IMG/VR virus record: IMGVR_UViG_3300006114_000763
Span: 1-30,337 of that record
DNA: 30,337 nucleotides
Source of the DNA: a virus
Lineage: Duplodnaviria > Caudoviricetes
Strand: one strand, 5' to 3'
The translations under genes were made by a program, and so were the position numbers. The notes beneath the pieces were generated by a model. It had not been told where the DNA came from. It did no database searches and was given only the letters and a program-made list of their open reading frames with translations. Of this stretch, positions 1 to 26,960 are shown in pieces (within the stretch, counting starts at the first letter, position 1; every line of letters starts with the position of its first letter).

Positions 1-4
1 TATA

Positions 5-87
5 TGGAATCCATTGTGTGTAGGGCATCGAAACCTACATTAAGCCCCATAACGGGCCTTTATTACCACTTATAAGAACACGGATTC
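5..87 (-). pseudogene. Degenerate tRNA-like element (isotype not assignable)
   Basis: The minus strand has a GAATCC.../...GGATTC closing stem ending in CCA, a TGG-containing D-like loop and a T-like hairpin TGTAGG-TTTCGATGC-CCTACA. Arm and loop lengths are non-canonical. Confidence 0.3.
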
Positions 88-136
88 TTGAGGTCATGAC
101 TCCCCAATATGGACAGGGTAATTACTCCTGTTTTTA

Positions 137-206
137 CCATATAGAAACACACTACTCTCTTTATAGTCGAAGCCCCGGACGCTTCTCGTAATGTGTTTTT
201 ATATGG
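137..206. other. Long imperfect hairpin (about 19 bp stem) starting at the CCA end of tRNA-Ile; possible processing stem or small RNA
   Basis: CCATATAGAAACACACTAC (137-155) is near-complementary to GTAATGTGTTTTTATATGG (188-206). Confidence 0.45.
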
Positions 207-277
207 TACCCAGTAGAGGTAACGCTCCTCTGTCTTTCGATTATCAGTCGAGTGCTCTTCTTTTGAGCTAACCGGGT
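204..277 (-). tRNA. tRNA-Ile (GAT)
   Basis: Cloverleaf read by hand: acceptor ACCCGGT/ACTGGGT, anticodon loop CT-GAT-AA, encoded CCA. The T-loop AGCGTTA is atypical. Confidence 0.85.
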
Positions 278-282
278 AAACT

Positions 283-308
283 TGGCGGAATGGACGGGAC
301 TCGAACCC
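283..308 (-). pseudogene. 3' fragment (T-arm + acceptor 3' strand + GCCA) of a canonical tRNA, probably tRNA-Asp
   Basis: The minus strand reads GGGTTCGAGTCCCGTCCATTCCGCCA, closely resembling the 3' end of bacterial tRNA-Asp (G73). There is no tRNA sequence immediately upstream. Confidence 0.75.
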
Positions 309-342
309 TAGTGCAAATTAAAAATACATTCGAACCCCAGAA

Positions 343-349
343 CTAAATA
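343..349 (+). promoter_or_regulatory. T4-like late promoter motif (CTAAATA)
   Basis: Variant of TATAAATA, 5 nt before the ATG at 355. Confidence 0.5.
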
Positions 350-354
350 GTGTT

Positions 355-996
355 ATGAAACACTGTCCTAAATGTGGAGCCGAACACGATAAACCAGGCA
401 TTTTCTGTTCTCGCTCTTGTGCTAACTCAAGAGTCAGAGACCAAGCCTTCAAGGATAATGCCAGCGCTTACGCTAAAGCCAATCCAGTGGGCTGGGCCGC
501 CAATCCAAAAAGCCCTCGAAGTGGGGAGGGGATTAAGAAAAAGTGGGCCGCTTTCAGAAAAAATTTAAAATGTTGCGAATGCGGTATCGAATTTGAAGTA
601 CCATATTCGCAACGAAACAGAAAATACTGTTCTGTTGATTGTAGCAACAAAAATAAATTCCACGTAAATTCAAACAGAAAGAAAACATCAATTCACAACG
701 GATTTAAAATGGATTCTGGCGCAGAACTCGCATTCGCTCAGTTATGTGATAAAAATTCAATTCATTGGGTCAAAAATACGACCGTGTGGTTTGAATACTT
801 ACCAGGTAAAAGATACTACCCTGATTTCTATCTTAAAGATTTTGATCTATGGGTGGAAATAAAAGGCAAGCGTTATTTTAGAGAGGATGATCCAATCAGA
901 TGGGCATCGGTACCAAACCACGAAGTGATATGGTCCAATAAAATAACATTACCTACTAAAATAATGGCGACCGAGAAGGGGATCGAACCCTCCTGA
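355..996 (+). CDS. Putative free-standing homing endonuclease: two Zn-binding repeats plus a PD-(D/E)XK nuclease domain
   Basis: CxxC...[FY]CSxxC occurs twice and the C-terminal region has a YYPDFYL...WVEIKG catalytic motif. The gene lies antisense within a tRNA array. Confidence 0.75.
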   Translation: MKHCPKCGAEHDKPGIFCSRSCANSRVRDQAFKDNASAYAKANPVGWAANPKSPRSGEGIKKKWAAFRKNLKCCECGIEFEVPYSQRNRKYCSVDCSNKNKFHVNSNRKKTSIHNGFKMDSGAELAFAQLCDKNSIHWVKNTTVWFEYLPGKRYYPDFYLKDFDLWVEIKGKRYFREDDPIRWASVPNHEVIWSNKITLPTKIMATEKGIEPS

Positions 997-1044
997 ATAT
1001 CCGCAGTGACAGTGCGGCGACCACACCAAGCAGTCCCCTCGGCC
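965..1044 (-). tRNA. tRNA-Asp (GTC)
   Basis: Acceptor GGCCGAG/CTCGGTC, G73, CCA; anticodon arm CCGCA-CTGTCAC-TGCGG; T-loop TTCGATC. Confidence 0.88.
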
Positions 1045-1117
1045 TATAGTTATAAAGAAGCCCTGAGTTAGTGCAAACAAGATAGACTTGAGTGGTTCGC
1101 TTTCGGGCGGATGATAT

Positions 1118-1193
1118 TGGTGGGCTATCGCGGATTCAAACCACGCAACAACTCTATGTTGTAGAGTTAGGATTTCCAATCACTCTAAAGCCT
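1118..1193 (-). pseudogene. Degenerate tRNA (76 nt, non-canonical anticodon loop ACAACAT)
   Basis: Has a CCA end, T-arm CGTGG-TTTGAAT-CCGCG and central stem ACTCT/AGAGT. The acceptor is mismatched, the D-arm is poor and U33 is absent. Confidence 0.5.
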
Positions 1194-1267
1194 ATAAATT
1201 TGATCCAGATTACACGGCGTTAAGAATAGGTACCCTAGCTTAACTTCTGTCCGGTGGCAGGTCTTTC

Positions 1268-1292
1268 CGCTAACCAACTACGCTACCATTCC
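1268..1292 (-). pseudogene. 5' fragment (acceptor 5' strand + D-arm) of the tRNA whose 3' end is at 283-308
   Basis: The minus strand reads GGAATGG-TA-GCGTAGTTGGTTAGCG. GGAATGG pairs 7/7 with CCATTCC in the 283-308 fragment. It begins 5 nt after the tRNA-Met CCA. Confidence 0.7.
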
Positions 1293-1297
1293 TAAAC

Positions 1298-1371
1298 TGG
1301 ATGCAGGACCTAGAATCGCACTAGGGACTGGAGCTTATGAGACTCCCGAGATACTACTTCTCCATCCTGCG
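1298..1371 (-). tRNA. tRNA-Met (CAT), initiator-like
   Basis: Anticodon loop CT-CAT-AA, with a C1:A72 mismatch and A11-U24 as in fMet tRNAs. It lacks the three consecutive G-C pairs in the anticodon stem. T-loop is TGCGATT. Confidence 0.82.
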
Positions 1372-1378
1372 GCAAACT

Positions 1379-1453
1379 TGGTGGACCGACGGGGATTCGA
1401 ACCCCGGACTCTAGAATGCAAATCTAGTGCGTTCCCAATTACGCCATCAGCCC
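1379..1453 (-). tRNA. tRNA-Ala (TGC)
   Basis: G3:U70 acceptor pair, anticodon arm CTAGA-TTTGCAT-TCTAG, TTCGAAT T-loop, CCA. Confidence 0.93.
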
Positions 1454-1459
1454 AAATTT

Positions 1460-1544
1460 TGGTGGATGCGGTTGGAGTCGAACCAACAGTGCCAAGGGCG
1501 GGAGATTTACAGTCTCCTGGGGTTACCAGTTTTCCTACACATCC
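1460..1544 (-). tRNA. tRNA-Tyr (GTA)
   Basis: Anticodon arm GGAGA-CTGTAAA-TCTCC, long variable arm, TTCGACT T-loop, CCA. Confidence 0.93.
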
Positions 1545-1553
1545 ATATAACTT

Positions 1554-1582
1554 ATTATACACTCTACCAGCTATGCTGTCAA
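1554..1582 (-). promoter_or_regulatory. sigma70 promoter immediately upstream of the tRNA array
   Basis: TTGACA-17 nt-TATAAT, perfect consensus. Confidence 0.8.
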
Positions 1583-1616
1583 CATCTAGTTTATCTTTCT
1601 AGTGCTGTAGTAGAGT

Positions 1617-1686
1617 GTGTATTAAAATGCTCTAGACTATGTCTGTTCCGGCGCTTTCGGGACGCTATGAGAACATTTTAATACGC
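1617..1686. other. Long imperfect hairpin (about 17 bp stem)
   Basis: GTGTATTAAAATGCTCT (1617-1633) versus AGAACATTTTAATACGC (1670-1686). Confidence 0.45.
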
Positions 1687-1707
1687 TACCATTTTCTTTC
1701 CACAAGA

Positions 1708-1773
1708 GGAAATGCCATCCGGTAGGCCGCCCATTTGCTAGTTATTATAGTGTCTAGCGTGGATCTCGTTTCC
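1708..1773 (-). ncRNA. Candidate small structured RNA
   Basis: GC-richer non-coding island closed by GGAAA/TTTCC with an inner GCTAG/CTAGC stem. It lies directly downstream of the attenuator terminator. Confidence 0.3.
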
Positions 1774-1788
1774 ACTTTTTAACACTTG

Positions 1789-1825
1789 AAAAACAAAAAC
1801 CCCAGGGTGTTTAGTCCTGGGGTCC
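1789..1825 (-). terminator. Intrinsic terminator of the leader (attenuator)
   Basis: The minus strand has the hairpin ACCCCAGG-ACTAAACAC-CCTGGGGT followed by TTTTGTTTTT. Confidence 0.8.
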
Positions 1826-1872
1826 TTTGGAGTTAGAGTGTAGTTGTATTACACTTTGGTCTCCCGGACCCC
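1819..1872 (-). promoter_or_regulatory. Predicted antiterminator hairpin, mutually exclusive with the 1789-1825 terminator
   Basis: Stacked helices GGGGTCC/GGACCCC, GGAG/CTCC and AGTGTA/TACACT. GGACCCC overlaps the terminator 5' arm. Confidence 0.7.
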
Positions 1873-1992
1873 GATCTTAATCTCTGGTGTGCGATCATTA
1901 TTTGACATTTCGAACGCAGACCATAAGGCGGCAGGGCAATAGCCTAGCTGACTTGCGGTTCCTTGTATCAAATGTTTATGTAACGACTGCAT
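1849..1992 (-). CDS. 47-aa leader peptide MQSLHKHLIQGTASQLGYCPAALWSAFEMSNNDRTPEIKIGVRETKV
   Basis: Translated by hand (below the ORF-track cutoff). Purine-rich AAGGA/GGA lies upstream, and the stop codon sits within the antiterminator, just before the terminator. Confidence 0.65.
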   Translation of the reverse strand: MQSLHKHLIQGTASQLGYCPAALWSAFEMSNNDRTPEIKIGVRETKV

Positions 1993-2049
1993 TTTAGTTT
2001 CCAATTTTTCCTTAAAATTTATACGTCTTTTTATATAACGTATGCTTCT

Positions 2050-2078
2050 ATTGTAGTGCCTTTCAACACCACTGTCAA
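2050..2078 (-). promoter_or_regulatory. sigma70 promoter upstream of the leader peptide
   Basis: TTGACA-17 nt-TACAAT. Confidence 0.7.
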
Positions 2079-2117
2079 CAACTTTTGGTATCTTTTTTGT
2101 TGTTTTTTTACAACAAG

Positions 2118-2125
2118 TATTTATA
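2118..2125 (-). promoter_or_regulatory. T4-like late promoter
   Basis: Exact TATAAATA in an intergenic region. Confidence 0.55.
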
Positions 2126-2147
2126 CCTTGCTTGCTAACATGTATTT

Positions 2148-2176
2148 ATTATATGTTTATTTAGTCTTTGTGTCAA
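2148..2176 (-). promoter_or_regulatory. sigma70 promoter upstream of the leader peptide
   Basis: TTGACA-17 nt-TATAAT. Confidence 0.75.
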
Positions 2177-2183
2177 CCACTAT

Positions 2184-2813
2184 TTAGATATTTCCTGGAT
2201 CTTTTAGGCCTAGTTGCTCAAAACCCCAAGATCTTTCATTGCAGCCATTGCAATTATAACATCTTCCTACTTCTTGAGAGTTGCAGGTATGTGTGATGTA
2301 ATATAGTTTATTTTGTTCCAAACGGTTGCACAGGTCGATGATATGAGTCTTGTTTAATTTTTCTAGCGGTGCTCTGAACCAGTAACTTGTTTGATAGGGA
2401 ACAGGATCCCACCCAATCATATGTTGTGGCTGTTGATCTATCAACCCTAAAAAAGCCATGTGATACCCTAAACGCCATGCTTCTCTTACTCCAGATTCTA
2501 CCTGTTGTTGTTGCGGTAGATCGGGATTGCCCACAGTAATAGGGTCTTGATAAGGTAACCCAAAGTTATCATTGATGTGTGCCACCACTAACTTAGAAAA
2601 AATCTTAGACCCTTCTGTTCTTTGAATAGTCAACGGCACTATGGTATGTGGATTTCCAAACTCTTTGTTTACCTGTAGAAGGATATGGTAAAGTAATGCA
2701 CTATCAATACCACCACTGAGAAAAACGGCAATCCTGCCAGGAGTTTCGGGTAACTCTATTTCTACAGTTCGCTGATCTTTTTTTGGACCGCACTGAAAAC
2801 TCTTTGTCAACAT
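2184..2813 (-). CDS. QueC-like PP-loop ATPase (7-cyano-7-deazaguanine synthase family)
   Basis: LSGGIDS PP-loop and a C-terminal Zn site TCN...CYNCNGC..R. Confidence 0.7.
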   Translation of the reverse strand: MLTKSFQCGPKKDQRTVEIELPETPGRIAVFLSGGIDSALLYHILLQVNKEFGNPHTIVPLTIQRTEGSKIFSKLVVAHINDNFGLPYQDPITVGNPDLPQQQQVESGVREAWRLGYHMAFLGLIDQQPQHMIGWDPVPYQTSYWFRAPLEKLNKTHIIDLCNRLEQNKLYYITHTCNSQEVGRCYNCNGCNERSWGFEQLGLKDPGNI

Positions 2814-19345: not shown

Positions 19346-22227
19346 TATTTTGCTCCTTGTTTATACTGTAGATCAACCATTTCTTGGTGCAATCTATCAC
19401 TTCCTCTTGTTAAACCTCTTAATACACGCTCGTTATCTATAGTCTTTTGATTCTTATATACTTCTTCCGACTTATAGAATTTTGCATCTAATAATGTCAA
19501 TTTTGCATAGGCATCAAACCCCTTGGGCTGTGTGGCAATACTAGCTATGTCAACACCGCCTGCAACTTCATTAGGCTGTACATTACGTTTGATCTGTCCG
19601 TCCTGTGTTTGTTCTGCACCCTGTAGTGTCATAAATGCTTGTTCATTTACATAATCGTTGATTGAACCTCGACTACTTGCACGAGCGATTTCTGTCTTAG
19701 GTATTTCAACTTCAGTTACAGGAGATGGAAATGTTTTCTTCATAGTATCTAAATTAGTTGTGGTAAAAATTGAATAGTCAACAAAAGAACTTGATTGGTT
19801 ACTTTCAGGCTGTGGCGGCGGCATATATTGAACCACCGGCTGTTGAGCAGTCACAGATTGAACTATTTGTTGCTGTACCATAGCCACAGTAGTTACCTGT
19901 ACAGGTACTTCGGCTTGAGTTTGTTTAGGAGGAGTTGGAGCAGTATTTATTACTGTGCTTTGTTGAACTACCTGTTGTACAGCTTCTTGTTGTCGAGGTA
20001 CAGGCGGTGGTAAACTAGCAGTTTGAACCTGTTGTCCTGTGGCCTGCGATGTTGTTGCCTGCTGTTGAGGTGCCGTAGGCAATGCATTTATAGTCTGTAC
20101 TTGTTGTACAACGGCCTGCACTAGTTCTTGTTGGCGTGGTGCCTGGGGTGGTAAACTACTAGTCTGTTCCTGCTGTGTGGAACTTACTACTGCTTCTTGC
20201 TGTTTCGGAGCAGGGGGAAGTGTTTGAGTGGTAGTTTGTTGAACGACTACTGTGGTATTTTGTGTGCTTGAAACATTGTCATTTCTTGCAGGTAAAGAAG
20301 ATTGAGAATTAGATGTAGTTTCAGCTACTTGTGTAGTAGAGGCTTGATTACTTGCTGTTCGTTGATTATTAATGCTGGCCAAGGTAGTTGGGGTATTGGC
20401 CTGTAGTGTGATCACACTGGTTGAACTGCTACTGGCAGTTTTAGTAGATGTCGATGATGTAGAACTGGCTACAGCAGTGGCAGCAGTGATACTGGCCGAT
20501 TGTGCTGTGCCTGCTACTGCTTCTGCTATAGTTAATGCTGCTGATGTTGCTGTTGCCGCGGCTTCATTGGCCTGTGCTACTACTGCGGCTGCGGTAGCAG
20601 TAACTTTAGCTTGTTCTTTAGATACCACACTCATGGCTAGAGCACTTGGCCCGCTTCCTCCACCTTTACTTTCACTTGACGGTTTAGTGGATCCGGCAAC
20701 TTGCACATCGCCTGGTTTAGGTTGTGGGTTAGTAGCACTAGGTGCCGCACTAGTCACAGGGGCACTGGTAGCAGGTCCGGGACCAGCAGCCGCTTGTTGC
20801 TGCGGGGGAGGTTGTTGGCTATTAGGATCTGGACCAGCTGGTGCAGGTGCCACCGGAGCAGAGGCAACTGCCGGACCAGGTGCCGGACCAGGTGCCGGAC
20901 CAGCGGCAAGTGCAGGGGCGGCAGTATCTGGTGCAGGGGAATTAGGATCTGGAGCAGGACCGGCAACTGGACTAGCAGCAGGTTGGGCACTAGCAGCAGC
21001 CAATGCTTGTTGTTTAGCAAAGGCAGCACCGTAACCTGGACAACTGGTACTAGACAAGGGGTTGGTTGTACAAGGATCAGGAGTGTATAATGCTGTAACA
21101 CTCATATTCTGAACGGCAGCATTTCCTGATGTTGTTGCCCCCATTGTAAAATTACCCAATGACAAAGAATTTGTTGTAGAAGATAGCAAGAATTGACGCG
21201 ATACATTTTCAGCTGTATTAGGTGTTGAATAACTTTGTCCAGCAGTATAGACAGTTTGATTGTTACTATTTGTTAATAGCACTCGTACTTGAGCATTGGG
21301 ATTAGTAGTCATATACCAACTACAAGAACCATCTTGGTTAGTAGCAGTACAACCATAGGTACCGTTGCCTAGACTATAGTTATAACTGTAGTTAAATCCA
21401 TACACCTTAACACCTGCCCCAGAGTTTTCCAATGCTGTATTAACGGCGAATGTGTTATAAACTGTACTGCCACTGGATGCTACAGCATTTGGTTCGGGCA
21501 ATAGATTATTACTGGTTACAACATCCTTAAATCCAGCACAGGTTGGACTATAAGCAGGATTGGTAGCGCAGGGATTTGTAGTGTATAATAAATCTACGCT
21601 ATTGACATGGACTCTAGGACCATAGTAGCCTGCCCAGTAGTTTTGATCCTTACCTGTGAAACTGACCTGTAGGCCAGTGGCCGCAGTGGTGTCATAACGA
21701 TTGTTGAATAGTTGTGTGCCTGAGAATTGTTGAAAAATGCCCGAAGCAGTATTAACATTGCTATAGTTATAACCAAAACTTTCTAAGGTACTTCCGCCAG
21801 GTCCCAACAAACTAACCGTACCAGTTACGGTACCTCTATTACCATTTGATATACTTTTCTCATTGTTAATACCCCAAGAGTAAGTATAGCCTGCTAGTTG
21901 TATGCCTGTGCCCGCATTGGCCAGTGCTGTGTTAATAGCCGCAGTTTGACTAACAGTAACACCAGAACCGTTTGGGCCTGGGTTGTAGCCAAATATAATA
22001 TTGCCAGTGGAAGGATTATAGGCAGGAGTTGACCCGCCACTATATCCACCAGCTTGGCCTGTTACAGTATTAGACCAAGGCAAACCACCGCCAAGGTTTA
22101 GGACGTTGCTAGTTGAACTTAGTGGCAGCCCTGTAACAGGGTCTGTGGTTTGAGCATTAGTGGTTGAAGATGCGATAAGCAATAATGCCCAGCAAACTAC
22201 CGACGCCAATATTTTTGTAATAGTCAT
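19345..22227 (-). CDS. Large exported protein: two beta-rich Cys-capped domains plus a Pro/Ala and Ser/Thr/Gln low-complexity stalk
   Basis: Signal peptide, a PCxxNPxxSxxCxG motif twice, and a 960-codon open frame. Confidence 0.8.
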   Translation of the reverse strand: MTITKILASVVCWALLLIASSTTNAQTTDPVTGLPLSSTSNVLNLGGGLPWSNTVTGQAGGYSGGSTPAYNPSTGNIIFGYNPGPNGSGVTVSQTAAINTALANAGTGIQLAGYTYSWGINNEKSISNGNRGTVTGTVSLLGPGGSTLESFGYNYSNVNTASGIFQQFSGTQLFNNRYDTTAATGLQVSFTGKDQNYWAGYYGPRVHVNSVDLLYTTNPCATNPAYSPTCAGFKDVVTSNNLLPEPNAVASSGSTVYNTFAVNTALENSGAGVKVYGFNYSYNYSLGNGTYGCTATNQDGSCSWYMTTNPNAQVRVLLTNSNNQTVYTAGQSYSTPNTAENVSRQFLLSSTTNSLSLGNFTMGATTSGNAAVQNMSVTALYTPDPCTTNPLSSTSCPGYGAAFAKQQALAAASAQPAASPVAGPAPDPNSPAPDTAAPALAAGPAPGPAPGPAVASAPVAPAPAGPDPNSQQPPPQQQAAAGPGPATSAPVTSAAPSATNPQPKPGDVQVAGSTKPSSESKGGGSGPSALAMSVVSKEQAKVTATAAAVVAQANEAAATATSAALTIAEAVAGTAQSASITAATAVASSTSSTSTKTASSSSTSVITLQANTPTTLASINNQRTASNQASTTQVAETTSNSQSSLPARNDNVSSTQNTTVVVQQTTTQTLPPAPKQQEAVVSSTQQEQTSSLPPQAPRQQELVQAVVQQVQTINALPTAPQQQATTSQATGQQVQTASLPPPVPRQQEAVQQVVQQSTVINTAPTPPKQTQAEVPVQVTTVAMVQQQIVQSVTAQQPVVQYMPPPQPESNQSSSFVDYSIFTTTNLDTMKKTFPSPVTEVEIPKTEIARASSRGSINDYVNEQAFMTLQGAEQTQDGQIKRNVQPNEVAGGVDIASIATQPKGFDAYAKLTLLDAKFYKSEEVYKNQKTIDNERVLRGLTRGSDRLHQEMVDLQYKQGAK

Positions 22228-23950
22228 TGTCTTTTACCACTTCTTCCATTTTAGGTAACTTGTCTTCGTTTTCTTCCCAAGCTGCTCTAGCTTGTTCGCC
22301 GATCTTACCTTCGTAGGGGCAAGGTGTTCCTGCTGCCATCATGGCATCAAACACACGACGATCTTGACACATAGTGGCCACTGCGGCAACTTTCATGCCC
22401 ATGTCATATAGTGTTTTGCTTAACTTTAGTCGTTCGCAGTTCATATCGCGGTTTGTGCCGCCGTTGCTTACACCAAAGATCTGTGTTTGTACTGAGTTGC
22501 TTGTACCTGTAGTACATAGGTCAGCATTACCACCACTCATCATAGCAGGAGCAACAGCAGTTGGAGGAGGTTGAATAACCTTCTGTGTGATTGTGCTGTT
22601 GTTGTTATTGTTGTTGGTCAATGTACCGCTTTGAATGTTTTGGTTAACATTGTTGTTTGAACTTGTACTGTTGTTGGTATTGTTGTTGTTATTGGTAGCA
22701 GTACTGGTTGAAACATTATTGTTATTGTTGGTCATACTACCACTTTGAATGTTTTGATTAACATTGTTGCTGGTACTGGTGTTAGTATTAACATTGGTAT
22801 TGGCATTAACATTGTTGCTGGTACTAGCACTGGTACTATTAACGGTACTGGTATTGACATTGTTGTTATTGTAGGTCATTGTACCGCTGTTAATATTATT
22901 ATTGGTATTAACATTAGTGTTTGCGCTGGTAGAACTACTTGTATTAGCATTATTGTTATTGTAGGTCATTGTACCTGAATTAACATTATTGTTAGTATTA
23001 ACATTAGTAGAACTACTTGTACTAGCATTATTATTGTTATAAGTCATTGTGCCACTGTTAATGTTATTATTTGTATTAACATTGGTATTTGAACTAGTGC
23101 TGGCGCTGGTACTGGCATTATTGTTATTATATGTCATTGTGCCAGTATTAACATTATTATTTGTGTTCACATTGGTACTGCTACTTGTATTAGCGTTGAC
23201 ATTATTGTTATTATATGTCATTGTTCCAGTGTTGACATTATTATTAGTATTGACACTGGTACTGGCACTGGTTGAAGCATTGACATTATTGTTATTATAA
23301 GTCATCGTACCAGTATTCACATTGTTGTTATTATTGGTATTGACATTGGTATTGCTACTGGTTGAAGCATTGACATTATTGTTATTGTATGTCATTGTAC
23401 CACTGTTAATGTTATTATTTGTATTAACATTGGTATTACTGCTAGTAGACGCACTGGTACTGGCATTATTGTTATTATATGTCATTGTACCAGTGTTAAC
23501 ATTATTATTGGTATTAACATTGGTATTACTGCTAGTACTGCTACTAGTACTGGCATTATTGTTATTGTAGGTCATTGTACCACTGTTGACGTTATTGTTG
23601 TTATAAGTCATTGTACCAGTGTTGACATTGTTGTTGTTATTGGTTACTGTACCACTTTGAATATTATTGTTAGTGTTTACAGCAGTAGAACTTGATGTTG
23701 AAGTATTATTATTATTACTTGTACTATTCACTGTGCTTGTACTAGTAGCATTACTAGTACTGACATTATTGTTGTTACTGTTTACAGTACTTAAACTATT
23801 CGATGTACTATTAGTATCTACCAGTGATGTAGAACTATATCCACCAGTTATACTGGAATTTTGATTGATCAATGTAGGATCACTAGATTGGGCGAGAGAA
23901 AAAGTGCTAAGTGCTGTTAGTGCGGCTATTGCCAGTAATTTTCTTATCAT
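22157..23950 (-). CDS. Exported Asn/Thr/Ser-rich repeat protein with a Cys-containing C-terminal domain
   Basis: GGAG RBS before the ATG at 23950, signal peptide, ten GTMTYNNNN repeats, and C-terminal DLCT...NCERLKL...MCQD...TPCP. Confidence 0.82.
   Translation of the reverse strand: MIRKLLAIAALTALSTFSLAQSSDPTLINQNSSITGGYSSTSLVDTNSTSNSLSTVNSNNNNVSTSNATSTSTVNSTSNNNNTSTSSSTAVNTNNNIQSGTVTNNNNNVNTGTMTYNNNNVNSGTMTYNNNNASTSSSTSSNTNVNTNNNVNTGTMTYNNNNASTSASTSSNTNVNTNNNINSGTMTYNNNNVNASTSSNTNVNTNNNNNVNTGTMTYNNNNVNASTSASTSVNTNNNVNTGTMTYNNNNVNANTSSSTNVNTNNNVNTGTMTYNNNNASTSASTSSNTNVNTNNNINSGTMTYNNNNASTSSSTNVNTNNNVNSGTMTYNNNNANTSSSTSANTNVNTNNNINSGTMTYNNNNVNTSTVNSTSASTSNNVNANTNVNTNTSTSNNVNQNIQSGSMTNNNNNVSTSTATNNNNNTNNSTSSNNNVNQNIQSGTLTNNNNNNSTITQKVIQPPPTAVAPAMMSGGNADLCTTGTSNSVQTQIFGVSNGGTNRDMNCERLKLSKTLYDMGMKVAAVATMCQDRRVFDAMMAAGTPCPYEGKIGEQARAAWEENEDKLPKMEEVVKDNDYYKNIGVGSLLGIIAYRIFNH
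22590..23810 (-). repeat. Intragenic imperfect tandem repeats encoding (GTMTYNNNN...NTNVNTNNN) units
   Basis: Recurring gtcattgtacc and ttattgtt DNA units with synonymous variation; boundaries approximate. Confidence 0.85.
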
Positions 23951-24023
23951 TGTGTACTCCATTAATAAGACTTCACATCTATTTAAGTACAACCATATAG
24001 GAATAAACTACACACTTAACCAT

Positions 24024-24063: not shown

Positions 24064-24948
24064 TTATTTTACCTTATATTTAATATATTCGGTAATCAAA
24101 TCTGCTACATCAACACCGCAATATTTTTCAAAACCACTGAAACCTGGATTACTGTTAGCTTCACATACACGGAATCCACGCTTGTCAAATAATAAATCAA
24201 TGCCTGCTATGGTCAATCCCAATGTGCGGGCAGTTTCGCTGGCAATATATTCAATCTCGGGAGTGACTTCAAATCCTTCCCCAGTACCGCCAGCAGTAAT
24301 GTTAGCACGGAAATCACCTTCGGGCGCTGTTCGTTTCATAGCACCAATAACTTTACCACCTATTACCAGTACACGCAGATCTTCACCTGGATGATCACCG
24401 AGATATTCTTGAACCAGTAGCGTCTTTTTATTGCCTAAACTCTCTATAAATTCAACGAGTTTCTTATAATCTCGCTTCTTTTCGCATAGGTATACGCCAG
24501 CACCATAACTGCCTGTAACTACTTTAATAACACAGGGATAGCCAATGTTTTCCGCAATGAGTTTTTCCTGTATGGGAAAACGCACCATCATGGTATTGGG
24601 GATAGGAATACCAGCACGACTTAGTAGTTGGCTAGTCATCATTTTATTTTTAGCAGTTTCTATAGATGAGCTACTGTTTATAACAATCACGCCTGCTTGT
24701 TCAAAGTGTCTTAATACTGCTACTTGGAATGGAAGAATACCTGCGCCTAATCTAACCAGCACAAGTTTAGGTAGTTCAATGTCCTCGCCTTTGTATTTGA
24801 TACCTTTGCGGATATCACGGTCCACAACAATATCAAAATCATCGGGATGACATATTCTTACGGCAATATCTTTAGTAGTAAAACTTTCAATCAATCTGCC
24901 AGTTTCGTAGTCTGTGGGAGATTGTTTAGTTATAATGATGACGCTCAT
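24064..24948 (-). CDS. rimK: RimK family ATP-grasp alpha-L-glutamate ligase
   Basis: GS.G.GV, VQEY, DLRVLVIG, FRAN...GG and EANSNPGF motifs. Confidence 0.88.
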   Translation of the reverse strand: MSVIIITKQSPTDYETGRLIESFTTKDIAVRICHPDDFDIVVDRDIRKGIKYKGEDIELPKLVLVRLGAGILPFQVAVLRHFEQAGVIVINSSSSIETAKNKMMTSQLLSRAGIPIPNTMMVRFPIQEKLIAENIGYPCVIKVVTGSYGAGVYLCEKKRDYKKLVEFIESLGNKKTLLVQEYLGDHPGEDLRVLVIGGKVIGAMKRTAPEGDFRANITAGGTGEGFEVTPEIEYIASETARTLGLTIAGIDLLFDKRGFRVCEANSNPGFSGFEKYCGVDVADLITEYIKYKVK

Positions 24949-24969
24949 ACTGTACCTATTATCTACACA

Positions 24970-24977
24970 TATTTATA
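24970..24977 (-). promoter_or_regulatory. T4-like late promoter upstream of rimK
   Basis: Exact TATAAATA in the intergenic gap. Confidence 0.5.
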
Positions 24978-25006
24978 TTAAAGTATAAGATAACTAGATT
25001 ACAGTT

Positions 25007-25669
25007 TTATTTAATCTCGGGAAATAGAACTTCTTCCACGAACTTCTTCATGGTATTTTCTTCTACGCCCATGGCAACCATACTGCGAACTACATGTGGA
25101 TTTTGTTTTTGCCAATAACAATAGCGATTTTGATGTTCTGTATTGTCAGTACCAGGCTGGTTATTTAGGCCAACATGTAACAAATAATATTCCAGTGTAT
25201 CTTTGGCAAGTTCGACAAGGCTGTCTAACTCCTCGCCGACTTGTACATTACCTGCTGCCACCATGCTGGTACTGAATATCTTTTGTGCCCATTCAGGTAA
25301 CTCGCGAGGCTTGTTCCAAGCAATATTTTTCACACGGTCAGCAAACCAAACTTCCATTTCAGAGCAGCCACCTGCCCAAGAAAAGTCATGAAAGGCTCCT
25401 GTGATCTTATTTGGTCCGCATACAGCATCGAAACCCCAAATAGGACTAGGGCTGTTGATGTGTGGGAATATGGTACAATGTAGGATGTAGAGTTTATGCG
25501 TGTCTCTATTATCTACAATTTCAATATGTGCCCTACGAAAACGCTGGCTTTCGTAAATTTTATTATACCAATCGTAGTTGTGTGGTGTATCTATTAAAAA
25601 CCCAGTATCATCAAAACGCATTTCAATGTGCTGGGCCAGCTTTTCAATCTTATCCCAAAGCTGAGTCAT
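25007..25669 (-). CDS. pcyX: Ferredoxin-dependent bilin reductase (PcyX/PcyA-like)
   Basis: FRRAHIE, LHC.IFP, GFD, RELPEWA..IFS and QNRYC..QKQN motifs; adjacent to heme oxygenase. Confidence 0.78.
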   Translation of the reverse strand: MTQLWDKIEKLAQHIEMRFDDTGFLIDTPHNYDWYNKIYESQRFRRAHIEIVDNRDTHKLYILHCTIFPHINSPSPIWGFDAVCGPNKITGAFHDFSWAGGCSEMEVWFADRVKNIAWNKPRELPEWAQKIFSTSMVAAGNVQVGEELDSLVELAKDTLEYYLLHVGLNNQPGTDNTEHQNRYCYWQKQNPHVVRSMVAMGVEENTMKKFVEEVLFPEIK

Positions 25670-26186
25670 AGTCTCTCATCATGCGGATAGCCCAGTCAAA
25701 GGCCACATTGGCTTCATCACCCATGCTGTCGTCTAGTTTAGCACGGATGTTAGTCATCAATGTACGAGCATCTTCAAACTCTAAGTTGCGATGCGGTCCA
25801 GGAACAATCTTCTTAATCATCTGTCCACCAAACATATCGCCCATGTGCCAAGTATACAAGTGGGCCATGATCTTGTTAGGGTCATTGCTGATGGACAGCA
25901 GGTAGTTATAGTAATCAACTACCACGGGACGGAACGAATGCTGTGGATTACCTTCATTCATTTCTCTGTAGTCCATGGCTAGATAAAAGGCTCTACGCAA
26001 ATCTGGTAGATCTGACAGTAGTCGATTAGCACCAGCGGCACCCTCGATAGCACCATAGAACAACCATTTTTGGTATGTCCAGTCTATCCAAAGTTCTCTG
26101 GGCAATGTTTGAGCAAACACAGCCTTCATGAATTTAGTGCCTTCGGCTAGGGTGTGTTTATCTTTGGTTAAATCTTTTAAACTCAT
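25650..26186 (-). CDS. hemO: Heme oxygenase (biliverdin-producing)
   Basis: LKDLTK..H..AE with proximal His, AHLY...GD..GGQ and EA..AF motifs. Confidence 0.88.
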   Translation of the reverse strand: MSLKDLTKDKHTLAEGTKFMKAVFAQTLPRELWIDWTYQKWLFYGAIEGAAGANRLLSDLPDLRRAFYLAMDYREMNEGNPQHSFRPVVVDYYNYLLSISNDPNKIMAHLYTWHMGDMFGGQMIKKIVPGPHRNLEFEDARTLMTNIRAKLDDSMGDEANVAFDWAIRMMRDYDSALG

Positions 26187-26482
26187 TCTGCTTGAGCTTT
26201 CAAAACAAGTGGATGTCCATGGCCTCTGGCCAAGGTTGTCGAATCGTTAACTTTTTGCTCTGCAATTTCGTGACTATAAATCCCAGCAACAGCGCTACCT
26301 TCTTTATGAATAGCCATTGTGAGTGCTACTGCTTGTTCTTTGTTTTTATGAAAAACTGTCATAAACAAAGCAATGACAAAATCCATTGGTGTAAAATCGT
26401 CGTTAAAAACCAAGACTTTATACTTGCTGGGTTCTTTAAATCTTTGTTTTGTTTTTTCTTCGAGGATAGTATCTGTGGTCAT
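26183..26482 (-). CDS. clpS: ATP-dependent Clp protease adaptor ClpS
   Basis: YKV...NDDFTPMDFV, IH.EG.A..G.Y..EIAE.K and HPL motifs. Confidence 0.93.
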   Translation of the reverse strand: MTTDTILEEKTKQRFKEPSKYKVLVFNDDFTPMDFVIALFMTVFHKNKEQAVALTMAIHKEGSAVAGIYSHEIAEQKVNDSTTLARGHGHPLVLKAQAE

Positions 26483-26493
26483 TTTAGTCTTTC

Positions 26494-26520
26494 AAAATGG
26501 GGGAGGAAAGGGCTCCCCCA
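26494..26520 (-). terminator. Hairpin/terminator after hsp20
   Basis: TGGGGGAG-CCCTTTC-CTCCCCCA-TTTT on the minus strand; the short U tract suggests it is leaky. Confidence 0.55.
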
Positions 26521-26525
26521 TCGGC

Positions 26526-26960
26526 TTACTCAGCCTTTAGTTTAAGAACTCGTGGTTTCAATGCTTCTGGAACCACACGCTTTAGTTCAATAGTTAGTAC
26601 ACCATTTTTGATTGTACCTTCCTCAACTTCCATGTGTTCTGCTAGTGTCCATGAACGAGTAAAATCACGGCTAGCCAATCCACGATGTAAGTAAGTAGGT
26701 TCATTCAAATCGACTTCTTTGCGTTGACCTTTTACAATCAATTGATTTTGGTCAATCTCAACAGTGATCTCATCTGGGTCAAATCCTGTAACCGCAACTT
26801 CGATCTCGTAAGTATCTTCATCGCGTTTCAAAACATTGTATGGAGGATAAGAGTTGTTGATTTGATTTGCAAAGCGTTGTTCAAAGTTATCGAACAAGTT
26901 GTCAAATCCTAGAAGTGCTCTATTAAGAGCGTTGGTGTCAAAACGAACGAGTTGATTCAT
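26526..26960 (-). CDS. hsp20: Small heat shock protein Hsp20 (IbpA-like)
   Basis: GFD..F, YPPYN, YLHRGLA.R.F.R and NGVL.I.L...PE..KPR motifs. Confidence 0.93.
   Translation of the reverse strand: MNQLVRFDTNALNRALLGFDNLFDNFEQRFANQINNSYPPYNVLKRDEDTYEIEVAVTGFDPDEITVEIDQNQLIVKGQRKEVDLNEPTYLHRGLASRDFTRSWTLAEHMEVEEGTIKNGVLTIELKRVVPEALKPRVLKLKAE

Follow-up and report, generated by a model that had tools for sequence, protein, structure and literature searches.

The window (the whole 30,337-nt stretch of viral DNA analysed here, from a source record of 30 kb) carries on its minus strand, between positions 2180 and 1460, a compact series of features leading into a tRNA array. Reading in the direction of transcription, the series begins with three stacked candidate promoters, all proposed at these sites in the original prediction and recovered here: a predicted distal sigma-70-type site (2148..2176, 12/12 consensus positions), a candidate phage late promoter with the sequence TATAAATA at 2125-2118 (presumably of the T4 late type), and a predicted proximal sigma-70-type site (2050..2078, 11/12), whose -10 box ends 57 nt 5' of the ATG of a leader ORF (1849..1992). 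The last codons of this 47-codon ORF run into a predicted three-helix antiterminator (1819..1872), the 5' arm of which is formed by codons 41-43 and the third helix of which includes the stop codon. There follow a predicted GC-rich intrinsic terminator (1789..1825; stem 1825-1816 with 1806-1797, a 9-nt loop, and a U-rich tail), a conserved structured RNA (about 1615..1787), and, directly 5' of the first tRNA, a predicted internal sigma-70-type promoter (1554..1582, 12/12) that would bypass the switch. On its upstream side, the leader promoter region adjoins a QueC-like (PP-loop) gene (2184-2813, minus strand).

The array itself, also on the minus strand, opens with tRNA-Tyr(GUA) (1460..1544) and continues with tRNA-Ala(UGC) (1379..1453), a tRNA with a CAU anticodon (Met or Ile2; 1298..1371), tRNA-Asp(GUC) (965..1044), and tRNA-Ile(GAU) (204..277), the last of which scores 51 bits with Rfam and is found by ARAGORN under relaxed settings (default settings miss it). 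The array runs beyond the end of the window; in a longer record that is identical to the window over the 4130 bases compared (G006), it comprises 23 ARAGORN tRNAs in 12.9 kb. An HNH/endonuclease-like ORF (PHROG 1271, 15137; 355-996, plus strand) forms an antisense insert in the array and overlaps tRNA-Asp, an apparent tRNA 3' fragment lies near it (~282-310), and a degenerate tRNA-like sequence, possibly a pseudogene, is detected at 1118-1193 (minus strand) at the relaxed ARAGORN threshold only.

The leader ORF (1992 to 1849) consists of 47 sense codons plus TAA, contains all 20 amino acids, and uses 38 distinct codons where 32.9 are expected under uniform use, in agreement with the earlier description of this ORF (about 33 expected). 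The chance of at least 38 codons is 2.0% under uniform use and 0.12% when judged against 5813 windows from the phage's own genes. A complete set of amino acids would arise by chance in 2.9-4.1% of cases, depending on the null, so that the all-20 content of a single leader ORF is weak evidence by itself and relatives are needed to decide. The window contains 132 ORFs that begin with ATG and span 25-65 codons; two of them contain all 20 amino acids, and only the leader ORF has a terminator behind it. No residue occurs more than four times (Ala, 4/47), and the RNA of the ORF is no more stable than its shuffled versions (z, -0.6). The only two valine codons, numbers 42 and 47, fall within or beyond the antiterminator arm, whose first codon is 41; because these positions lie in the masked zone, 19 of the 20 amino acids would be sensed in this copy.

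Predicted folds agree with the proposed competition between a three-helix antiterminator and the terminator at 1789-1825. The antiterminator pairs 1872-1866 with 1825-1819, 1864-1861 with 1832-1829, and 1855-1850 with 1842-1837 (-25.5 kcal/mol; z, -3.8 versus shuffles), and the stretch containing the terminator, which a terminator scanner had missed owing to its 9-nt loop (scan maximum, 8), folds at -22.5 kcal/mol (z, -3.5). Since 1825-1819 is common to both structures, the two folds are mutually exclusive. Equilibrium folding of the segment divides almost evenly between antiterminator (0.46) and terminator (0.54), implying that the default state of the switch would be set by kinetics. The antiterminator fold overlaps the last seven codons of the leader ORF; about the last seven codons are to be excluded from the original prediction that a stall at almost any codon would be sensed.

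Relatives were collected by three pattern searches of viral sequences, the leader peptide alignment being too variable to serve as a seed for locus search: one with a terminator pattern (119 loci from 56/64 database parts), one with an ORF-body pattern (120 loci, 33/64 parts), and one with a pattern for the downstream RNA alone (120 loci, 8/64 parts). We dropped five unrelated and three truncated loci from the first sample; 13 loci without a terminator, two truncated loci, and one chance match (L144) from the second; and 74/120 loci failing the RNA filter from the third, to which L427 and L465 were readmitted on inspection. The first two samples together leave a family of 144 distinct leader ORFs of 35-54 codons, confirming that a conserved upstream ORF precedes tRNA arrays in related phages, and those loci of the first search that have enough downstream DNA lead into such arrays. 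All five long records of the first sample encode a T4-like Gp23 capsid protein, and the three that are at least 90% complete measure 342-364 kb; the capsid protein of one of the family's genomes (G004) is nearest to those of Sinorhizobium phage Phosso (72%), Vibrio phage 2.275.O (69%), and PA5oct/Paride (68%). The element was sought in cultured phages as well: in 50,697 annotated phage records, blastn with the leader and with the downstream RNA turned up nothing beyond short, weak alignments, the downstream RNA pattern occurs in 0/5 of the large phages Paride, Phosso, Vibrio 2.275.O, GAP32, and XacN1, and no all-20 leader heads an array in 14 stretches (~251 kb) around most of the tRNA clusters of those five phages. 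No holder of the downstream RNA appeared among the matches listed. A scan of bacterial genomes with an overly permissive pattern (4/64 parts) gave 0/25 complete ORFs in 120 loci, a result compatible with a cellular version of the switch.

Both competing structures are maintained across the family, and both display the covariation expected if they are real. The outer antiterminator helix is 97% paired, with 18 cells of double-sided change (4.9 when shuffled; 0/500 shuffles as high), and the terminator is 99% paired, with double-sided changes at four pairs in 14 cells (2.1 when shuffled; 0/500 as high), the shuffle controls for both helices removing the effect of kinship among loci only in part. 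Because the first search pattern fixes the terminator arms, covariation was drawn from the other samples. One base covaries three ways, linking the antiterminator arm with both the 5' and the 3' strand of the terminator, and in 11 divergent leaders both folds are rebuilt from different sequence. Averaged over the family, the antiterminator, which is transcribed first, is the more stable (-24.6 versus -18.1 kcal/mol for the terminator). No conserved third competing helix was detected in the family. A covariation-supported antiterminator that excludes a U-tailed terminator is a feature of ribosome-mediated attenuators.

Several indirect signs suggest that the leader ORF may be translated and coupled to this switch. 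Its frame is open in 66/66 representatives (0-8 in other frames), 142/144 leaders contain an internal Met, and 137/144 end in TAA. From arm to stop codon the distance is 20-24 nt in 123/143 cases, even though the reading frame of the arm differs among leaders (66, 69, and 8 leaders in the three frames). Two further features of the attenuator class are present: a short ORF between promoter and tRNAs, and an antiterminator strand that overlaps the end of that ORF with a fixed spacing to its stop codon. In 19/55 leaders, only 6-10 nt separate the -10 box from the ATG, a spacing typical of leaderless messages. The Shine-Dalgarno signal is weak, with a strict match in 12/36 leadered copies.

It is the completeness of the amino-acid set that most clearly distinguishes these leaders. 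All 20 amino acids occur in 127/144 distinct leaders (17/144 are incomplete), and the excess, which gives meaning to the all-20 content noted for the single copy, lies far above four nulls. When residues are shuffled within alignment columns, 11.4±2.9 of 67 representatives are expected to be complete (maximum, 20 in 2000 shuffles), versus 54 observed (counts from 145 ORFs, L144 still included). Simulation along a tree from a complete root, with fewer changes than observed, leaves 32±16 (maximum, 88) of 144 leaders complete in 300 runs, and a second setting leaves 45±24 (maximum, 109; 300 runs); the other five frames are complete in just 0-4/66 cases. In the sample gathered through the downstream RNA, the ORF and terminator are present in 30/30 accepted loci having 900 nt of upstream sequence, and 17/29 distinct leaders are complete versus 1.0 expected (24 hold at least 19 kinds). 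Short divergent leaders of 27-38 codons contain just 14-19 kinds of amino acid. If the count is restricted to codons lying 8 nt or more ahead of the arm, 40/66 leaders are complete and 62/66 hold at least 19 kinds, versus 4.6 and 20.5 expected.

The individual residues are not fixed in place. Cys, when present once, falls in 20 different alignment columns across leaders, and any two complete leaders have on average 7/20 residue kinds that share no column (an alignment-dependent figure). Leader residues shift position while the full set persists, and by these comparisons of sequences it is the complete set that is under selection. Codon diversity behaves differently: the excess of codons in this copy (38 versus 32.9) is real, but across the family it follows largely from the diversity of amino acids (mean, 35.0 distinct codons versus 34.3 under uniform synonymous choice), and a maximization of codon diversity is rejected, 41.6 codons being possible. 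U-ending codons, which are reported to be read more slowly than C-ending ones (PMC4046918), are strongly preferred in two-codon boxes when counted raw, with the preference becoming modest at one vote per column and reversing for Cys. They are avoided in four-codon boxes (Ala, 0.09 versus 0.34; Pro, 0.07 versus 0.38; Thr, 0.10 versus 0.40; Val, 0.07 versus 0.36). Relative to the phages' own genes, the leaders likewise avoid U-ending four-box codons, and they favor GAG over GAA.

Incomplete leaders allow the amino-acid set to be compared with the tRNAs encoded nearby. Long flanks were examined at 26 loci, including 20 selected for their incomplete leaders, and the resulting cargo counts are somewhat blurred by tRNAs that ARAGORN misses by default (such as the Ile gene at 204-277). 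In 15 fully covered loci, 14/28 residues missing before the last seven codons have no downstream tRNA (5.9 expected under two nulls; P ≤ 0.0013), and the other 14/28 do have a tRNA downstream, generally toward the end of the array (mean rank, 0.77). For residues absent outright, the corresponding figure is 10/20 (14 loci; 4.1-4.4 expected; P = 0.0007 and 0.007). The tRNA for a missing residue is often found just upstream of the leader (17/25 residues in 8 loci; 5.4 or 9.5 expected). For example, no Glu, Tyr, early Asp, or AGY codons occur in the leader of G002, upstream of which lie tRNAs for Glu, Tyr, Asp, and Ser(GCU); within the same clade, G024 also lacks Cys and His and has the matching tRNAs upstream, and the leader of G029, which lacks Arg, Asp, His, Tyr, and Val, is preceded by tRNAs for Arg(ACG), Asp, His, Tyr, and Glu. 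Three dissimilar leaders without Phe all lack a downstream tRNA-Phe (3/3), and the tRNA for Val, unsensed in the phage of the window, is the last of its array as extended in G006. The correspondence has exceptions: TTA is kept in 4/4 loci with a tRNA-Leu(UAA) upstream, and Val goes unsensed in G001 and G002 even though its tRNA lies early or midway in the array. Dropping both loci of the strongest clade changes the P value of the match to 0.02-0.09, and dropping related loci, to 0.001-0.09. We regard the trend between missing residues and tRNAs as real, if not yet phylogenetically secure, given the few and partly related loci from which it is drawn. Phage tmRNA genes occur near leaders or inside arrays at eight loci (L390, L391, L516, L520, L523, L526, L532, and L533), and L532 also has a tRNA with a CUA anticodon upstream of its leader.

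Promoters are arranged in a manner that bears on whether the switch gates the tRNAs or adds to their expression. Matches to the sigma-70 consensus are treated here as candidate promoters, a match in itself not proving activity. In 61/63 loci, such a site (at least 10/12) precedes the terminator by 170-450 nt, and 35/55 representatives have ATAAATA no more than 200 nt from the start codon, versus 8.1 in shuffles. Between terminator and first tRNA, a consensus site of this type is present in 22/62 loci; the other 40/62 have none, and there the switch could gate the first block of tRNAs. In the phage of the window, the internal promoter at 1554-1582, together with nine sites of at least 11/12 inside the G006 array, makes it likely that the switch boosts rather than gates the array, just as the original prediction had cautioned on the strength of the internal site.

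The RNA between terminator and tRNAs is itself conserved. It is more stable than expected (z, -4.1 for 1590-1800), has double-sided changes at 8/10 consensus pairs, and meets a strict motif in 117/144 loci (12 give no match and 15 are too short); no Rfam family matches it in window positions 1-2400 or in seven loci, although catalogues of viral structured RNAs may already list it. Its unpaired AACG loop, GGGCGG, and AUG are invariant, visual inspection suggests an H-type pseudoknot at the 5' end, and our guess is that it serves processive antitermination or processing. In 80/117 loci, the first gene after the terminator, preceding the structured RNA, is a small ORF of 50-60 residues predicted to form two helices (e.g., L019:3051-3212 and L126:1622-1780); it is missing from the window and the remaining 37/117 loci. 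This protein has 441 relatives, one weak PHROG match to a family of unknown function and one sub-threshold Pfam match (none above a curated cut-off), and no Foldseek match.

Taken together, the conserved upstream ORF, the covariation of both helices, the excess of complete leaders, and the cargo trend support the attenuator reading originally proposed, and the element is very probably a real, conserved attenuator-type switch placed before phage tRNAs. We assign a probability of roughly 0.78 to the more specific reading that the leader monitors decoding of the whole set of amino acids and adjusts the supply of tRNA by feedback. Under this reading, host RNA polymerase would transcribe the leader with a ribosome following. 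With all tRNAs working, the ribosome would arrive at the last codons and mask the 5' strand of the antiterminator, allowing the terminator to form. The dimensions of the ribosome underlie the geometry of this masking: a ribosome at the stop codon would cover helices 2 and 3 and part of the arm, and one stalled about three or more codons before the arm would leave the arm free. If a ribosome waits there, or if none has loaded, the antiterminator would form first and remove the 5' arm of the terminator, such that polymerase could read on into the structured RNA and the tRNAs; newly made tRNA would end the stall, closing a negative feedback loop. The internal promoter would provide a basal supply of tRNA, on which the switch acts as a boost. 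The least secure step is the trigger, which we infer to be loss of host tRNA during infection.

The leading alternative, itself unlikely, is a general sensor of translation stress like those of toiL and whiB7, in which any block of translation, whether by antibiotic, toxin, shut-off, or late-infection uncoupling, would induce read-through and the full amino-acid set would merely widen the range of stalls without a link to tRNA supply. A two-state layout lacking a detectable third helix would indeed answer any stall, or an untranslated leader, and there are precedents for such breadth. In the toiL uORF of Escherichia coli topAI-yjhQ, stalls at many positions are sensed by one uORF, and five antibiotic classes are reported to act through different stall positions; toiL differs in occluding a ribosome-binding site, with Rho termination, and in controlling a toxin-antitoxin pair (PMC12121999). 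The trn operon of Anabaena, whose 26 tRNA genes form an array carried by a mobile replicon, is likewise induced by translational stress, including antibiotics, but through a protein repressor, TrcR, at the promoter, and the string "attenuat" does not occur in the main text of that report (PMC10272220). What a general sensor leaves unexplained is that single-copy Cys, Trp, His, and Tyr are retained at shifting positions and that residues are lost when their tRNAs have left the array. The link between missing residues and array cargo speaks for a feedback loop acting on tRNA supply and against a sensor of antibiotics or starvation alone; we consider the general sensor unlikely as a full account, noting that it and the tRNA-supply reading are compatible.

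Somewhat less probable is a sensor of amino acid starvation in the host, the main output of which would be the small protein or the structured RNA, with tRNAs transcribed from promoters of their own. The frequency of the two-helix ORF and of the RNA motif behind the terminator fits such an output, as does the 12/12 promoter separating the RNA from the first tRNA in the window. Yet the small ORF is missing here and in nearly a third of the loci assessed, most loci (40/62) have no consensus promoter before the first tRNA, and the residue set follows tRNA position.

It is very improbable that the peptide is itself functional, acting by ligand-dependent arrest or in trans, with its composition incidental. 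Trp is nearly invariant in one column (single-copy in 61/66), and DRTPE occurs in 49/66 leaders, as might be expected of a functional peptide; however, DRTPE is missing from divergent members, and the Trp and Pro codons are able to pair as RNA. Arrest peptides of the TnaC/SecM type have key residues at fixed spacing, whereas here the distance from Trp to DR varies from 6 to 13 codons and that from Trp to the stop from 17 to 29 (save one outlier), and the tail is read in three frames. No Pfam or PHROG family matches the leader. A T-box-like RNA that binds tRNA directly, with the ORF a by-product, is scarcely credible: the ORF body does fold better than synonymous recodings (mean z, -1.8; 27/66 below -2), but that of the window is no more stable than shuffles (z, -0.6), the frame is kept open throughout, no T-box or other cis-regulatory Rfam family matches at the leader, and the T-box covariance model has no match at E ≤ 5 in window positions 1-2400 nor at the gathering score in seven loci. 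A long hairpin in the ORF body was considered and rejected, as it appears in single folds only and the consensus retains just five pairs at ~0 kcal/mol.

The proposed sensing of decoding through a leader peptide, stalling, and alternative terminator and antiterminator folds is shared with the attenuators of amino acid biosynthesis (trpL, hisL, pheL, and the ilv, thr, and leu leaders). Those leaders contain runs of one to three cognate residues in a four-segment layout before biosynthetic genes. The phage leaders, in contrast, have the full set without runs and without a conserved third helix, and no biosynthetic or synthetase genes lie behind them, their place being taken by tRNAs, the structured RNA, and, optionally, the small ORF. 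Closer in logic is the mycobacterial whiB7 uORF, as the original prediction had suggested: its efficient translation leads to termination and stalling to an antiterminator, and its composition is reported to decide which starvations are sensed (10.1101/2023.06.02.543512). In the same report, the uORF of Mycobacterium smegmatis contains all amino acids except Cys, that of Mycobacterium tuberculosis lacks several, Ala accounts for 25-40% of residues, and the target is a transcription factor (10.1101/2023.06.02.543512). The analogy does not extend to membership, for the phage leaders show no enrichment of Ala (6.1% over 90 ORFs; 4/47 here), fit the full set into 35-54 codons, and have a tRNA array rather than whiB7 as output.

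The reason for phage tRNA arrays has been debated for >50 years (PMC10264068), and phage tRNAs are reported to counter anticodon nucleases (PMC10264068, PMC11464382, PMC11555353); such counter-defense is a likely reason for inducing them when host tRNA is lost, and there are about even odds that attack by a host anticodon nuclease is the trigger here. In the text examined of one of these reports, the word "promoter" is not present and regulation of phage tRNA transcription is not treated (PMC10264068). Among the top results of our literature searches, none deals with control of tRNA genes or phage tRNA arrays by leader-peptide attenuation, consistent with the view that the arrangement had not been described in phages. 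On the broadest version of the tRNA-supply reading, the phage monitors the whole host tRNA pool via a mini-gene that co-evolves with its cassette in residues and, partly, in codons, and attack by an anticodon nuclease induces the whole set; judged from sequence comparison, this version has an even chance of being correct. If the switch is indeed tuned to the amino acids of the array, phage tRNAs would represent an inducible remedy for decoding failure, beyond a constant supplement of codons, and the leader would be a compact reporter for the loss of any tRNA. The family also shows selection on the completeness of a residue set and not on a sequence.

Elsewhere in the window, a minus-strand gene cluster (24064-26960) encodes a RimK-like ligase, a ferredoxin-dependent bilin reductase, heme oxygenase, ClpS, and Hsp20, and a minus-strand gene at 22157-23992 encodes a 611-residue protein made up mostly of tandem repeats rich in Asn, Thr, and Ser.
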